From NCBI GenBank assembly GCA_048885925.1, contig JBHLLG010000006.1, positions 23,030 through 87,029 on the forward strand: 64,000 nucleotides of DNA, in the 5' to 3' direction. Below the pieces are notes generated by a model that saw only the letters and a program-made list of their open reading frames with translations, was not told the DNA's origin and searched no databases. This document shows positions 4,029 through 55,643 of this stretch, piece after piece. The position numbers and the translations under genes are program-made. The number at the start of each line of letters is the position of its first letter. Positions within the stretch are counted from its first letter, which is position 1. The stretch is from Candidatus Hermodarchaeota archaeon. GTDB lineage: Archaea; Asgardarchaeota; Lokiarchaeia; Sigyniarchaeales; SOKP01.

Positions 4029-4595
4029 ATGAAAGTCGTATTATTTAATGGAAGCCCCCGAAAAGAAGGAAACACTTTTCATTGTTTAAATGTTGTAATG
4101 GGGGAGTTAAAGGCTGAGGGAATTGAATGTGATTATGTTTGGATTGGAAAAGAAAGATTGCAAGGTTGCACTGCTTGTTTACAATGTAGAGATAATGATG
4201 ACCAAAGATGTACAATAGAAGGAGATAATATGAATTATTACATAGAAAAAATGTTAGAATCTGATGGAATAATCATTGGTTCTCCAACTTACTTTTCAGA
4301 TTTATCAACAAGTACCAAAGCATTGATAGAACGTGCTGGATATGCTACGGGAGGTCATTTAAAACATAAAGTTGGTGCTGCTGTAGTAGCAGTCAGGAGA
4401 GCTGGTGCCAATCATGTATTTTCTAGCATTAATTATTTCTTTCTGATTAAACAAATGTTTGTTGTAGGCTCTAGTTATTGGAATTTAGGTATTGGAAGAA
4501 CCCCAGGAGAAGTATTAAATGATGAAGAAGGTATTAAAACATTTGAAAATTTAGGGAAAAATTTCGCTTTTTTGCTAAAAAAACTAAAATCTTAA
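4029..4595 (+). CDS. Iron-sulfur flavoprotein / NADPH-dependent FMN reductase family
   Basis: NGSPRKEGNT, CxxCxxC-x7-C and GSPTYF motifs. Confidence 0.9.
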   Translation: MKVVLFNGSPRKEGNTFHCLNVVMGELKAEGIECDYVWIGKERLQGCTACLQCRDNDDQRCTIEGDNMNYYIEKMLESDGIIIGSPTYFSDLSTSTKALIERAGYATGGHLKHKVGAAVVAVRRAGANHVFSSINYFFLIKQMFVVGSSYWNLGIGRTPGEVLNDEEGIKTFENLGKNFAFLLKKLKS

Positions 4596-4641
4596 TACTT
4601 TTTTCTTTTTATAATAAGTAAAATCCAAGTTCAGAGTTAAA

Positions 4642-5817
4642 ATGGATACATTAGATTTAAATCAAGTAAATCGGTTTACTTTACAAAAAAACCATCTAAC
4701 AGAGGAAACAAAATGTGATGATCTAATTCAAATAACCGAAGATTTATGTGGTCTCCATTCAACCGGTCTTACAACTTCTTATTTATCTCTATTTGTAAGA
4801 ACTAATAACTTCAAAAAAGAACATTTGGAAAAAGAACTGTATATAAGTAAAACTCTTGGTAGAATTCGTGGAATGAGAAAAACATTATTTGTTCAAACAA
4901 AAAACATGATTCCAATTGTTTTCGCAGCAACTATTAGTCTAATTGAAAAAACTCTTGAAAAATATATGGAATATCATAAAATTTCATTAAAAGAATATCA
5001 AGAAATTTCAAATCAAATTATAAATCTATTAAAAGGAAGAGAATTATCTACTTCCGCCATGAAGAAAGAATTAAATTCAAAAAGATTAATTCCCGAAATT
5101 ATCCATTTGATGTGTAATTATGGTATTTTAATAAGAACTAAACCAATTAAGGATTGGAAGGATAGAAGGAATGAATACGCTCTTTTCAAGGATTATTTTC
5201 CAACCATCAATTTAGAAAAGGTCAATCAGAAGGAAGCAATTCAATATTTAATAAAAAAATATGTAAAAACATACGGACCTGTGTCAGAAAACGATATATC
5301 ATGGTGGACAGGCTTAACAAAATCAAAAATAAGAGATGCTATAAAGAATTTTGAAGATAGTCTTAAAAAAGTAAAAATTATATCATGTAAAGGAAATTTT
5401 CTAATGGATAATTCCGATATGAAAGAATTACAGAAACTTACTAATCTTGACAAACACACATTATCATTATTACCTGAACTCGATCCTTATCCAATGGGCT
5501 ATAAAGAGAGAGAACGATATATTGATATACACAATCATAATAAGATTTTCGATCGTTCTGGAAATATTGCTGCAACAATAATTTTAGATGGAATTGTAAT
5601 TGGAGTTTGGGATACTGAAAAAAAACCTAAACCTACTCTCAAATTTCATTTATTCAATCCAATTGAAAAAGATATACTTGATGAATTGTATTCTAAAGCA
5701 AATAAGATTGGAGAATTCTATTTTGATAAAAAAATAGAGATTAAGGAATGTCCATCAATGATTCCTTTAACAGAAAGGACTGCTGGAGGATTCATGTCTC
5801 CACTTAAAAATTGTTGA
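4642..5817 (+). CDS. AlkZ/YcaQ (HTH_42) family winged-helix DNA glycosylase
   Basis: GLHST catalytic-motif region, RGMRKTLF, YGPVSENDISWWTGL, LLPELDPYPMGYKER and DGIVIGVW. Confidence 0.8.
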   Translation: MDTLDLNQVNRFTLQKNHLTEETKCDDLIQITEDLCGLHSTGLTTSYLSLFVRTNNFKKEHLEKELYISKTLGRIRGMRKTLFVQTKNMIPIVFAATISLIEKTLEKYMEYHKISLKEYQEISNQIINLLKGRELSTSAMKKELNSKRLIPEIIHLMCNYGILIRTKPIKDWKDRRNEYALFKDYFPTINLEKVNQKEAIQYLIKKYVKTYGPVSENDISWWTGLTKSKIRDAIKNFEDSLKKVKIISCKGNFLMDNSDMKELQKLTNLDKHTLSLLPELDPYPMGYKERERYIDIHNHNKIFDRSGNIAATIILDGIVIGVWDTEKKPKPTLKFHLFNPIEKDILDELYSKANKIGEFYFDKKIEIKECPSMIPLTERTAGGFMSPLKNC

Positions 5818-52008: not shown

Positions 52009-54075
52009 TTAAAATTGGATTTCTGTCCAAACCGCAGGATGATCTGATTCTGGTACATTAATATATCGAGTTTCCAACACAGTAAAAGTAGTGGAAATAA
52101 AAATATGATCTATACGATCTGCTAAATCAAAACTATTACCATCTACTCCTCGCGATAATGCATTTTCCCAAGCATCCTGTAATACAGCAATCGACATATT
52201 ATAATAAATCGTGTTATTTCGAGAATTAAAATCTCCCATAGAAATAACATTAGTTTTACCACTAATACGATTCATTAATGTTTCCATATGAGCCTGTTTT
52301 ACGTCAGCGCTACCAGATGGATGGTTAATGTAGACATTAAATAATATACTACCAACTCTTATTTGAACTTCAGTTGTTCCAACTTCATCTTCATCGCTGT
52401 AAGTAAAGAAGGTTACTGCATTAATAATTGGATATCGAGAAAGAACTGCAGCTCCAAATGTCCCAGTGATTGTTCTTGGACCATAAAAAGAATAATAATT
52501 TAGGCGATTAGCAAAATAACGTACAACATCAGAACTACCATGTGTCATTCTAGCGGTGTCACACTCTTGTAAACCAATTATATCTGGATTTACGCCGTTT
52601 ATAATTTCTAATTGATTATTATAATTTTTCTCTCCAGCAACATTCACACCTTGTTGAATATTATATGTCATTACCTTTACTGAATCAATACCACTTGTAT
52701 CTTGTTCTTTAGGTGGTAATTCCCATATTACTACGGATATGCTAGTTCCAATTAGTAAAAGTACAAGAAATAAAATAATAGTTAATTTATCATAGAAATT
52801 AGTAATGAAAGCTTTGAATTCTATTACCTCTCTTTTGAAGATTAATTTTCCCATAACTGGAATTGTTATTCCTACCAATAAGAAAGGAAGCCAGAATAGA
52901 TTACGAAATAGTTGACTCACAGGTTCAATATAACCCCAGATATTTGTAAATACTAGCATAAACATTACCAGAATGAAAAAAAGACTCCCTACAGAGAATC
53001 CTGCTCCTAACTTTGATGGTCTTGGCTTTTGTCTAATAATTTCCCTAGATAAAAGAGCAAAATCAATAAAGACTATAGGTAATAAGGTTATCATTACAAT
53101 CAATGGAATATAATACCACCAACCAATAGGGTGATTTACAATTACCGGATCCGAGCTTGGACTAGTAGGAAATGGAAAAGAATGAACTGCTGGTGTGAGA
53201 ACAAGTGAAACAATAAATAAACCATTCCATATCCATAATATACGTGAATTTAATTTTCCAAGAATTTCTGGCTTAAAGGTGAGTATAAAGATTGTAGCGG
53301 CAATCATAGCTGCTATAGCAATTGTAATCGCTATGTAATCTCCCTCAGTCCATCTTGAAATAACAGTAGGGCTAATAAAAGCAAAAAAGTTGAGAGTTAA
53401 GATACTTATAATTCCAAGAGATAAAAGTTTAACACCTTTAAATCGAATATTTTTACTACTTTTCTTTTCTTCATGCTGGATTGTTTTGTTTGAGTTTGGA
53501 ATAATATTAGAATCATCATCAATTTTCACTTTAATTCGACCAATTATCGAAAGAATGGCAATAATAGCAATAATCCATCCAATAATTTGAAAAAAGCCAT
53601 AAATTGAAATATCAACAGTAGAATTAAGTGCTCTAAGTGTAATTGAAAGTAAAATAGCTAAAGCAAGCCCAACAGCTAATTTTAGACTTGTTTTTTCTCC
53701 ATTATTCATACTGTTATTCTTTATCGAATGAGAGTAATACACTGGAAAAAAAAGCATAAGACATCCTACACCTATACCTGATGTTATAATTCGAGTGGCC
53801 GAATCCAAAAATGGCGAAATTAAACGTAAAATTATAGCGATTATAGCTACAATTTCAAGACAGTAGTCAGGAATCTTATGTCTAAAACCTAACAAGACAA
53901 TAGGAGTAAATAAAAATAATATTCCAGCAGCTTTTTCATCCAATTCCAAATTTAACAGATCTAACATATAAACTGATTCAATCAAATCACTTAATAGCTG
54001 GAAAAAGAATAGAAACAACACCGTTAATAATATAAGCTCGGAATTAATTTTTCTATAAAAATTTGCGAATTTCAT
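52009..54075 (-). CDS. Polytopic membrane protein with C-terminal EEP (endonuclease/exonuclease/phosphatase) domain, CWH43/PGAP2IP-like
   Basis: Many TM segments, then MTYNI, DIIGLQE, LSRYPI, GDFN, IDHIF and SDH. Confidence 0.8.
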   Translation of the reverse strand: MKFANFYRKINSELILLTVLFLFFFQLLSDLIESVYMLDLLNLELDEKAAGILFLFTPIVLLGFRHKIPDYCLEIVAIIAIILRLISPFLDSATRIITSGIGVGCLMLFFPVYYSHSIKNNSMNNGEKTSLKLAVGLALAILLSITLRALNSTVDISIYGFFQIIGWIIAIIAILSIIGRIKVKIDDDSNIIPNSNKTIQHEEKKSSKNIRFKGVKLLSLGIISILTLNFFAFISPTVISRWTEGDYIAITIAIAAMIAATIFILTFKPEILGKLNSRILWIWNGLFIVSLVLTPAVHSFPFPTSPSSDPVIVNHPIGWWYYIPLIVMITLLPIVFIDFALLSREIIRQKPRPSKLGAGFSVGSLFFILVMFMLVFTNIWGYIEPVSQLFRNLFWLPFLLVGITIPVMGKLIFKREVIEFKAFITNFYDKLTIILFLVLLLIGTSISVVIWELPPKEQDTSGIDSVKVMTYNIQQGVNVAGEKNYNNQLEIINGVNPDIIGLQECDTARMTHGSSDVVRYFANRLNYYSFYGPRTITGTFGAAVLSRYPIINAVTFFTYSDEDEVGTTEVQIRVGSILFNVYINHPSGSADVKQAHMETLMNRISGKTNVISMGDFNSRNNTIYYNMSIAVLQDAWENALSRGVDGNSFDLADRIDHIFISTTFTVLETRYINVPESDHPAVWTEIQF

Positions 54076-54312
54076 GATTTATGATTTCATTTTTAGACTT
54101 TATAAATATTCTCACAAAACAGTATAATTCCCAAATTCAATTTAAAATAAAAAATCATGATTTTTTTTGACTTATTGAACCTACATTTTCACAAAATAAA
54201 GATTGAAATTAATTTTTAATTAATAGATTTATTTTGACTTAAAAATCTATACAAATCATTTAATCTCTCAATAATAAAGAAAAAAATAGATATTTAGTTA
54301 TTTAAATAGTTA

Positions 54313-54411
54313 TTATTTTTTAGCAGGACCTTTTTTTTTCGCGGGAGCCTTTTTTTTAGCTGGAGCTTTTTTAGCTGGAGCTTTTTTAGCAGGAGCTTTC
54401 TTTTTTGCCAT
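54313..54411 (-). CDS. 32-aa Lys/Ala/Pro-rich histone-H1-tail-like microprotein
   Basis: Manual translation MAKKKAPAKKAPAKKAPAKKKAPAKKKGPAKK with tandem TAA TAA stops; synonymous variation between repeats; SD-like AAGGAGA upstream. Confidence 0.8.
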   Translation of the reverse strand: MAKKKAPAKKAPAKKAPAKKKAPAKKKGPAKK

Positions 54412-54422
54412 TTTATTATACG

Positions 54423-54429
54423 TCTCCTT
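54423..54429 (-). promoter_or_regulatory. Shine-Dalgarno-like site AAGGAGA for the PAKK microprotein
   Basis: 11 nt upstream of the ATG at 54411. Confidence 0.6.
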
Positions 54430-54692
54430 AAAGTTTATTTAATTCATTAAATGATTAAGTTTTCGTAATTTATCACTAGTTTAACTTTTAAACATTACTA
54501 TTTTATTTTACTGGATGATTAATAAGTTGGAATAATCTAGAAAAAATCATAAATAGAATATAAAAAACTGTATATGTTATAAAAAGATACACTACTTAAT
54601 CCATTATACCGTTAAAGTAAACCATGAAATTAGACTTTATAGAAACGATATTAAAAATAAAATTTTTTATAGTTTCTAAATATTCAGAATTT

Positions 54693-55643
54693 TTAACTAT
54701 TGTTTATTTCCTTTACGTTTTTTAAAACAAAGAATAGTGCCCCTAATTCTCCAGTAATAGGAATATTTTCAGAAACAACATTATAATTTTGGTCGTAAAT
54801 TGCAACTAGTTTAAATCCATTACTTTCAAAAAACCATTTAAATTCATCAAATAACCATAAACGGAGTTCATGGCTTTCCTCTAAAACAATTTTTTTTCCA
54901 TTCTCAACAACGACCATCTGAAAATCAACATGTCGTATTCGACGCTCCAAATCGTACCAATTAATAGCCCATGTTAATTCAAGTTCCAAATCCTTCTCTT
55001 TGATGCTCCATGTATCATCAAACTTCTTCTCATTTCTTAAGTTATCACATTTACAACTAATTTCAACAATGTAAAGACCTCCTTTTTTAATAGATTTATT
55101 CATTGCCTTAAAATGTGAAATAATTTCTTCGTCATTTCTTAAATATCCTAAACTATTTATACAAATAAAAGCAGCGTCAAACTCATTATCGAATTCTACA
55201 TTTTTCATGTTCCCTACTATAGCATTAGCTTGATTAATAGATAGACCACATTTATTTAAACGCTCTATAGAATAATTTACCATGGCAGGATTTAAATCAT
55301 ACCCCAAACTATAATAACCGTATTGAGGTAAAATTTCTAAAAACATGCCTGGTCCACATGCTGGCTCTAAGATCTTCTTAACCGTGATATCAGAATATTG
55401 TTGAAAGCATTTCTCGAAAAAATTAATGTCACTTCTTACATCTCTAGTAAATGCTTTATCATAATATTTTGGAAAGTTGTAAAATTCATGAGTTTTTATA
55501 TCAGTTATGATAACTGTTGGTCCAGAATCCTCCAAATGACCTTTATGGGATATAACTTCAACATTCTGAGAAGAATTATTCGCCTGTAAATTGTTTGTAT
55601 TATGTAAAATGTTACAATCCTTTTTCTCAATATTATTTATCAT
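54693..55643 (-). CDS. Class I SAM-dependent methyltransferase
   Basis: ILEPACGPG, GYDLN, FDAAF and IKKGGLYIV; N-terminal extension uncertain. Confidence 0.9.
   Translation of the reverse strand: MINNIEKKDCNILHNTNNLQANNSSQNVEVISHKGHLEDSGPTVIITDIKTHEFYNFPKYYDKAFTRDVRSDINFFEKCFQQYSDITVKKILEPACGPGMFLEILPQYGYYSLGYDLNPAMVNYSIERLNKCGLSINQANAIVGNMKNVEFDNEFDAAFICINSLGYLRNDEEIISHFKAMNKSIKKGGLYIVEISCKCDNLRNEKKFDDTWSIKEKDLELELTWAINWYDLERRIRHVDFQMVVVENGKKIVLEESHELRLWLFDEFKWFFESNGFKLVAIYDQNYNVVSENIPITGELGALFFVLKNVKEINNS

Follow-up and report, generated by a model that had tools for sequence, protein, structure and literature searches.

Is a 32-codon reading frame built almost entirely of lysine, alanine and proline codons, alone between two larger genes, a gene in its own right, and if so, what would its product do? 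The question is raised by a 64,000-nucleotide stretch of a Candidatus Hermodarchaeota archaeon (assembly GCA_048885925.1, contig JBHLLG010000006.1, positions 23,030 to 87,029), referred to throughout as the window. A sequence-only reading of the window had singled out this open reading frame (ORF) as an overlooked microprotein gene resembling a free C-terminal tail of linker histone H1. The frame, here called the microgene and its product the microprotein, is located as follows.

54313..54411, minus strand: microprotein coding sequence (CDS) including the TAA stop, with ATG at 54411-54409 and TAA at 54315-54313 (supported by orthologues and codon-position bias)

The reading frame, selection on its product and its gene unit

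The ORF runs from ATG to a TAA that is directly followed by a second TAA (54310-54312), as the sequence-only reading had described without giving the strand, and encodes MAKKKAPAKKAPAKKAPAKKKAPAKKKGPAKK, a chain of 32 residues comprising 15 lysines, 10 alanines, 5 prolines, 1 glycine and 1 methionine. The five PAKK units and the lack of any acidic residue are likewise confirmed. The repeated units read A-P-A-K-K and G-P-A-K-K and follow a five-residue rhythm of the form KK(K)-A/G-P-A, and the 15 lysine codons include A-runs of 8 and 9 nt. The computed mass is 3325 Da and the computed charge about +14.5 at pH 7; from its composition, the chain is presumably disordered.

The frame lies by itself in a gap of 617 nt (about 600 nt in the earlier account), 281 nt from the upstream methyltransferase gene and 237 nt from the next gene. 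The host genome measures 3.9 Mb at 29% guanine-plus-cytosine (GC); of its 94,402 open frames (20 aa or longer), that of the microprotein is the sole one with a 20-residue window containing at least 17 K, A or P residues (K >= 7, P >= 3 and A >= 3). The GC fraction is 0.374 in the CDS versus 0.178 in the flanking intergenic DNA. Because of this contrast and the uniqueness of the K/A/P-dense frame in the genome, the ORF is not a mere by-product of an A-rich genome.

Selection on the protein was assessed in 13 orthologues that retain the full 37 codons and have distinct coding sequences. Variable sites number 4, 8 and 29 of 36 at the first, second and third codon positions, respectively, and the ratio of nonsynonymous to synonymous divergence (dN/dS) is 0.05 at a dS of 0.89 (Nei-Gojobori, 78 pairs). 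Lysine codons drift between AAA and AAG and the codons for alanine, proline and glycine drift at the third base while the residues are kept, the alanine, proline and glycine positions being as strictly conserved as those of lysine. Synonymous differences between the repeats of the window copy (CCT/CCA/CCC, GCT/GCG and AAA/AAG) had earlier been taken as a sign of protein-level selection; they are present, and the codon-position variability and dN/dS among the orthologues bear that claim out. By its pattern of substitution, the microgene is a protein-coding gene under purifying selection.

The changes that are tolerated concern length and repeat type. In-frame length changes occur as 15-nt insertions or deletions, giving products of 27-38 aa. 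In five genomes (G009, G005, G057, G264 and G268; loci L026, L031, L034, L200 and L203) a premature stop leaves the old C-terminal codons and the old stop still in frame behind it, and C-terminal shortening to 27-32 aa is tolerated or recent. Repeat dialects differ by clade (KKKAPAKKAGP; perfect KKKAPA; KKKAAP; and KKKPAP/KKKSAP in a second genus, where the leader differs too), relatives using A/G-P-K-K-K units, in which the second genus now and then has S or T ahead of P, while composition and the five-residue rhythm are preserved across all dialects. Because repeat number and dialect vary and truncations are tolerated, function would reside in charge, composition and spacing rather than in a fold. 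In one genome, G061 (C29, about 4517-4933; L044/L164), there are two copies in tandem at a distance of about 300 nt; both have a TATA-like box of their own, and one has a divergent head, MGKKGPQRKPAPKKK.

The ORF is embedded in a conserved unit with the following parts, the extent of the whole unit being converted from coordinates of the window locus L001 (G000:C6:75881-78910).

54271..54510, minus strand: conserved gene unit from promoter to terminator (in a blastn comparison of L001 with relatives, L001 1420-1659 aligns at 68-79% identity and the flanks do not align)
54494..54504, minus strand: purine-rich element AAAATAGTAAT, resembling a transcription factor B recognition element (BRE), with consensus AATAGAAAT in relatives (conserved columns in 9-locus and 26-locus alignments)
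54485..54492, minus strand: TATA-box-like TTTAAAAG, 74-81 nt before the ATG (TTTA.A invariant in 26 of 26 aligned loci)
54412..54460, minus strand: predicted A/U-rich 5' leader of about 50 nt, placed from the TATA position
54421..54429, minus strand: AAGGAGACG, similar to a Shine-Dalgarno site and 9 nt from the ATG (18 of 26 genus loci carry it at 8-9 nt before the start codon)
54276..54286, minus strand: T-rich run TTTTTTTCTTT, 27 nt after the stop, a terminator-like signal of archaeal type

Conservation spans about 100 nt upstream and about 40 nt downstream of the ORF, beyond which the flanks diverge, and the ATG-GCN-AAR-AAR start is conserved across species. The purine-rich element and the TTTAAA box together occupy positions 74-93 nt before the ATG. 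Judged by the archaeal consensus, the box is a putative promoter, the purine-rich element would act as a BRE, and the position of the box provides the predicted transcription start. RNAalifold applied to 18 leaders gave 0.0 kcal/mol and no consensus fold, and six single leaders fold no better than shuffles. The Shine-Dalgarno-like site reported earlier corresponds to AAGGAG at 54424-54429, inside AAGGAGACG; the remaining genus loci (8 of 26) carry near variants of this motif, which occurs only 12 times genome-wide on both strands. AAGGAGACG is a putative ribosome-binding motif; the 3' end of the 16S rRNA, with which it would pair, was not found in the assembly.

Downstream, a run of 7-12 T residues lies 20-45 nt past the stop in nearly all orthologous loci and probably serves as the terminator. 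A scan of the locus for bacterial-type promoters and hairpin terminators found nothing above shuffles, and an Rfam search of the locus gave no match except a sub-threshold snoU18, with no tRNA found. Collectively, the anatomy is that of a self-contained archaeal transcription unit with a predicted promoter, start and terminator.

Likeness to histone tails and distribution of the microgene

A six-frame search of the window genome with NF043032 identified three histones over the NCBIfam cut-off and a partial fourth below it at a contig end, and only one of the four is tailed. This protein of 82 aa is encoded at L003 1489-1737 (+), equivalent to G000:C47:14484-14732, on another contig than the microgene, and is recognised as a histone by NF043032 (53.4 bits, cut-off 50) and by PF00808 (39.9 bits, cut-off 21.4). 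It starts MAKKAPAKKAPAKKKAEGY, and its N-terminal tail, MAKKAPAKKAPAKKKA, is very similar to the microprotein; its cluster mate in a public collection is an NFYB/HAP3 family protein of a Lokiarchaeota archaeon. In the congener G001, the tailed histone has 83 aa and starts MAKKKAPAKKAPAKKKSEGY, its first 15 residues being identical to those of the window microprotein. Orthologues of the tailed histone in G015, G044 and G240 have shorter tails. The repeat flavours of microprotein and histone tail go together in four genomes, with PAP units in both in G240, a covariation that is anecdotal. Four microproteins gave no histone-fold match with NF043032 or PF00808. A decayed histone pseudogene was considered as the origin of the ORF and dropped, the four places returned by the six-frame NF043032 search all lying away from the microgene.

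Tailed histones are known from this part of the archaeal tree. A 2026 preprint (10.64898/2026.07.02.735847) describes tailed histones that co-localise with DNA in cultured Loki, methylation of Loki tails with the peptide AKKKTPAKK, and a Loki acetyltransferase of broad specificity that acetylates synthetic tail peptides; its section 5 places tailed histones in both the Loki and Hod lineages. Tailed archaeal histones had been noted earlier (PMC6136690). The tailed histones of that preprint (HLoB of Loki, HMpB of Hodarchaeales; 10.64898/2026.07.02.735847) resemble the microprotein in the MAKK start and in the K/A/P-rich, presumably disordered repeat style. They differ from it in that the microprotein is about twice the length of a tail, possesses its own predicted promoter and ribosome-binding site, occurs in one family only and lacks a histone fold, its repeats being followed by the stop or stops and the T-run.

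Histone H1 offers a further comparison, since its C-terminal domain shares with the microprotein the dominance of K, A and P, the lack of acidic and hydrophobic residues and the proline-punctuated lysine clusters. A tail of this composition neutralises linker DNA in H1. The earlier likening of the microprotein to an H1 tail holds for this acid-free composition and fails for the globular domain: there is no winged-helix domain, for which a 32-aa chain would be too short, and the window peptide matches 0 Pfam families at E up to 10, hence not Linker_histone. In addition, the microprotein has 32 aa versus roughly 100 aa, homology is not demonstrable, and the microgene is recent and lineage-specific.

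PAKK- and AKKA-type repeats are also found in bacterial H1-like proteins (HupB-type HU, the Rv3852 family, chlamydial Hc2 and Pseudomonas AlgP), in which, with few exceptions, they either adjoin a folded DNA-binding domain in one chain or reach a much greater length; the microprotein stands alone. Against NF050153 (Rv3852 family) the microproteins score 15.3 bits, for the window copy, and 12.5 bits, below the cut-off of 100, and PF07382 (Hc2) gave no match for the microproteins. A GTDB-wide scan with the N-terminal pattern listed 80 loci of at least 113 stretches; among the matches listed, the MAKK(x)APxKK start heads proteins with an HU fold from Pseudomonadales and Litorivivens, including one that bears the name 'HU family DNA-binding protein'. 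The S/TPKK motif of sea-urchin H1 and H2B tails binds the minor groove, and SPKK prefers A/T-rich DNA, a preference that would suit the 29% GC genome of the microprotein. Ser/Thr is replaced by Ala/Gly in the microprotein, so that a phosphorylation switch is absent. Protamines and viral DNA-condensing peptides are short polycations that neutralise DNA; the microprotein may do so by analogy, and differs in being Lys-based rather than Arg-based.

Searches of relatives, among them the pattern search proposed as a check in the sequence-only reading, established that the gene is not absent from them. In one GTDB family, with 134 genomes including that of the window, at least 46 carry an in-frame ORF; these are at least 28 of the 53 genomes in the window genus, 17 of the 42 in another genus and one of the six in a third. 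The ORF is intact, at 27-38 aa, in 45 genomes, the 46th being broken by a contig end. The exact N-terminal pattern alone occurs in 44 of the 134 genomes, with 0 matches for a reversed control, and a degenerate pattern applied to 40 relatives returned stand-alone ORFs of 31-37 aa in eight congeners, of the type MAKK[KA]APKKKAPAKKAGPKKKAPAKK, and a tailed histone in a ninth. A profile hidden Markov model (HMM) found fewer family genomes than the pattern and misses the perfect-repeat forms. The G016 copy (L257 1-151, G016:C5) is cut by a contig end inside the lysine repeat, and because assemblies break inside the repeat, the presence counts are lower bounds.

A sequence model of promoter, leader and start led to ten new places that were fetched, six of them microgenes and four another small gene. 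As an observation apart, this model weakly matches a conserved 65-aa gene, MAKKAAVEALFVKSKVREYIK (L304 126-320 (+), L306 105-299 (-), L302 and L305), which has no Pfam family and by eye looks like the C-terminal portion of a Phycisphaerae protein (L084, 95 aa) with a PAKK-repeat head.

Among 265 Asgard genomes of other families, the HMM matches one, inside a 272-aa frame. All 21 stand-alone archaeal ORFs among the GTDB matches listed equal sequences of known family members; their records are titled Promethearchaeota, Promethearchaeia or 'uncultured archaeon', with a few Odin- or Thorarchaeota. The assignment to Asgard archaea made in the sequence-only reading agrees with the titles of the carriers' records, for example Promethearchaeota and Lokiarchaeota. 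Since the gene was found in one family, and tailed histones are shared by the Loki and Hod lineages, the microprotein would be derived or convergent and not ancestral; judged from this distribution, the microgene is young and lineage-specific and not the ancestor of H1 or of histone tails. That it is relevant to how H1 or histone tails originated, as had been suggested, is unlikely on the same ground.

Neighbouring genes and readings of the function

The microgene is flanked in the window by two genes on its own strand.

54693..55643, minus strand: class I S-adenosylmethionine (SAM) methyltransferase gene, the upstream neighbour (Pfam Methyltransf_25/11)
52009-54075, minus strand: membrane protein with an endonuclease/exonuclease/phosphatase domain, the downstream neighbour

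The methyltransferase is generic, with 1wzn as its nearest solved structure and no NCBIfam model over cut-off. Relatives do not share the DNA directly flanking the window locus, and a moved cassette was considered; that idea was dropped once an orthologue of the methyltransferase was seen 2.5-7.3 kb upstream of the microgene, on the same strand and contig, in nine other genomes (L309-L318). Because of this shared upstream gene, the window locus is the same region minus the intervening genes. Within the genus, the methyltransferase occurs in 18 of 53 genomes, 14 of which have both genes; in 4 the methyltransferase was found without the microgene, and in a further 14 the microgene without the methyltransferase. 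Since related genomes are not independent, no functional conclusion follows from this tally, and the linkage may be mere regional synteny.

Recurrent neighbours comprise two nitroreductases, a flavodoxin/ferredoxin-domain protein, a metallo-beta-lactamase-fold alkyl-sulfatase-like protein, major facilitator superfamily transporters and a DUF2695 protein. Additionally, in 7 of 38 loci examined the ORF is followed at about 180-280 nt by a same-strand gene for a 132-aa protein without a Pfam family; from locus to locus the gene downstream changes, and in many cases it has the opposite orientation. The sub-threshold snoU18 hit lies at 54788-54853 (-), inside the methyltransferase CDS, and with 28.8 bits against a gathering threshold of 47 and an E-value of 0.044 it is most likely due to chance.

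The favoured reading of the function, held with about even confidence, is that the microprotein is a trans-acting, tail-like nucleoid polycation that binds nucleic acid or DNA. It builds on the gene anatomy, the conservation, the purifying selection, the identity to a histone tail and the restriction to one family described above. The microgene would be independently transcribed and translated, and its product would amount to a histone tail supplied in trans. Specifically, the (A/G)P(A/K)KK units would follow the phosphate backbone or the minor groove of the AT-rich DNA and neutralise its charge, the same job that would be done in cis by the lysine-rich tails of Loki-type histones and by the H1 C-terminal domain; binding to DNA or chromatin, and any compaction, are predictions of this scheme. 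Because the peptide consists of K, A, P and G residues after its start, its repeat number is free and its Lys and Pro positions are strict, charge density and spacing would matter rather than a fold or a specific partner. The nearest working models are the tails of histones from this lineage and the C-terminal domain of H1, each of which neutralises the charge of DNA and favours compaction of the fibre (PMC6136690, and otherwise general background).

Several observations weigh against this assignment. So basic a peptide would bind RNA, ribosomes, polyphosphate and acidic lipids as readily as DNA, and the neighbouring genes are metabolic or transport genes, none of them a chromatin or ribosome gene. 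The microgene and the tailed-histone gene differ in promoter and ribosome-binding site, and the low-complexity likeness between tail and microprotein may be convergent; because the sequence is of low complexity and the promoters and ribosome-binding sites differ, common descent of tail and microgene is neither shown nor excluded. Two genomes that carry the microgene, G006 (a single contig) and G019, yielded no close tailed-histone orthologue with the query used. Whole-unit BLAST found nothing convincing in four of five high-quality congeners, and in G062 and G060 the 9 kb downstream of the conserved methyltransferase contain no K/A/P ORF, absences that look genuine; the microgene is patchy in the family and therefore dispensable. 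Three metatranscriptome runs from the same study gave no contig on 53900-54800, a result that is uninformative rather than negative.

An unlikely though serious competitor is a polycation associated with RNA or ribosomes, which would neutralise rRNA or other RNA in the manner of tiny basic ribosomal proteins, or act as an encoded polyamine substitute, and would not be a chromatin protein. The same charge of +14.5 fits such a role, as do the strong-looking promoter and ribosome-binding motif with an unstructured leader, expected of an abundant product, the lack of chromatin neighbours and the lack of dependence on a tailed histone. A ribosomal component would not be expected to be missing from other families and from over half of the congeners in the search (the tally of carriers in the genus being at least 28 of 53), nor to vary freely in repeat number and dialect; moreover, no ribosomal-protein family in Pfam or NCBIfam matches at E up to 10, and the sequence equals a histone tail. 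That equality over 15 residues suggests in turn a tail mimic, serving as substrate, decoy or buffer for tail-modifying enzymes and readers and tuning marks rather than compacting DNA. Such a role is improbable, yet compatible with the favoured polycation. It would accord with the SAM methyltransferase upstream on the same strand in ten genomes including that of the window, and with the methylation of Loki tail lysines and acetylation of tail peptides described in 10.64898/2026.07.02.735847. The methyltransferase, however, is a generic class I enzyme without a substrate assignment, lies 2.5-7.3 kb away with genes between in nine of the ten genomes, and is missing in 14 microgene genomes and present in 4 without the microgene, which again are not independent; G006, in addition, has the microgene and no close tailed-histone orthologue was found there.

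The lysine codons themselves could suggest a leader peptide or upstream ORF that senses lysyl-tRNA or stalls on A-runs and controls a downstream gene. Classical attenuator leaders are similar in size to the 32-aa microprotein, the A-runs of 8 and 9 nt lie within its 15 lysine codons, and the 132-aa gene follows on the same strand in 7 of 38 loci. A leader peptide is nevertheless very improbable: the T-run comes directly after the ORF, the downstream gene varies in identity and strand, Ala, Pro and Gly are kept as strictly as Lys, the leader lacks conserved structure, and neither a hairpin terminator nor an Rfam element was detected at the locus, folding being confined to the leader. Least credible, and close to negligible, is a non-protein element, either a DNA or RNA element such as a small RNA or repeat, or the decayed remnant of a tailed histone. 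Short and repetitive sequence inside which assemblies sometimes break would be compatible with it; the concentration of substitutions at third codon positions (4/8/29) with a dN/dS of 0.05, the conserved start, stop and ribosome-binding motif, the lack of an Rfam match and the lack of a histone-fold remnant near the locus in the six-frame NF043032 search all speak for a protein.

A more far-reaching reading, rather doubtful, would have a tail released from its histone and supplied in trans by its own gene sit on Loki nucleosome fibres, where the same methyl- and acetyltransferases, deacetylases and readers that serve histone tails would write, erase and read it. If so, the dose of free tail would tune chromatin compaction and the availability of marks, and tails would move between free and fused states, by escape from or fusion to a histone-fold gene.

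Public records, significance and look-alikes in other organisms

That the gene had been overlooked by gene callers, as the sequence-only reading held, is borne out by an exact look-up in a collection of 15 billion proteins, which contains 0 of 10 family members and does contain the control, the 82-aa histone. The collection also lacks two pure-repeat proteins from bacteria, 91 and 118 aa long, so shortness alone does not account for the absence. An HMM of 15 members gave 0 matches at E up to 0.001 among 1.84 billion representative proteins; this is uninformative, since the ORFs lie outside the predicted sets and a low-complexity profile of 37 positions is too weak for significance in so large a library. 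In the literature, K/A/P repeat strings retrieved only unrelated vaccine-design studies, and searches on Asgard small ORFs, lysine-rich microproteins and protamines brought up no tail-only gene, although supplements may list small proteins or unassigned peptides. The available text of 10.64898/2026.07.02.735847 contains 'microprotein' 0 times and 'linker histone' 0 times. K/A/P repeat regions as such are already known as nucleic-acid binders. What appears new is a stand-alone archaeal gene that consists of the tail-like region only, agrees residue for residue over 15 positions with a histone tail from within its genus and, by its codon pattern, is subject to strong purifying selection.

Asgard archaea whose histones carry tails and modifications currently give the best view of the origin of eukaryotic chromatin. 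As an unannotated product, the microprotein is therefore also missing from proteomic search databases, and if the peptide is abundant, it would be an unrecognised chromatin or nucleic-acid component in these archaea. AKKKAPAKK-type peptides are common to the microprotein and the tailed histones, so that what tail antibodies and mass-spectrometric assignments pick up could be the free peptide. Being so narrowly distributed, the microprotein is of limited relevance to deep eukaryotic origins; it bears instead on present-day Asgard chromatin and on the reading of tail-directed reagents and mass-spectrometric data.

Outside the archaea, the N-terminal pattern marks other kinds of protein. In bacteria, among the GTDB matches listed, the start mostly heads HU-fold proteins with lysine-rich extensions and other folded or long repeat proteins. 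The same listed matches include, as a separate observation in bacterial metagenome-assembled genomes, at least four pure K/A/P ORFs of 21-32 aa with a MAKK start (L088, L124, L125 and L080, in contigs of Ferruginibacter, Chloroflexi, Hymenobacter and Phycisphaerales), which are likewise absent from the protein collection and could be either unannotated genes of an analogous kind or frames due to chance. Among 2.9 million viral contigs, the N-terminal pattern was found in 23 stretches, none of which resembles the archaeal microgene: in 21 it stands at the start of a protein of 109-608 aa, and the other 2 are short ORFs without relation to it. Of these viral stretches (L234-L256, IMG/VR), 19 belong to a phage family of about 150 aa, in which MAKKAPAKKAP(A/T)KR(K/Q)P... 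is followed by a hydrophobic, membrane-like segment.

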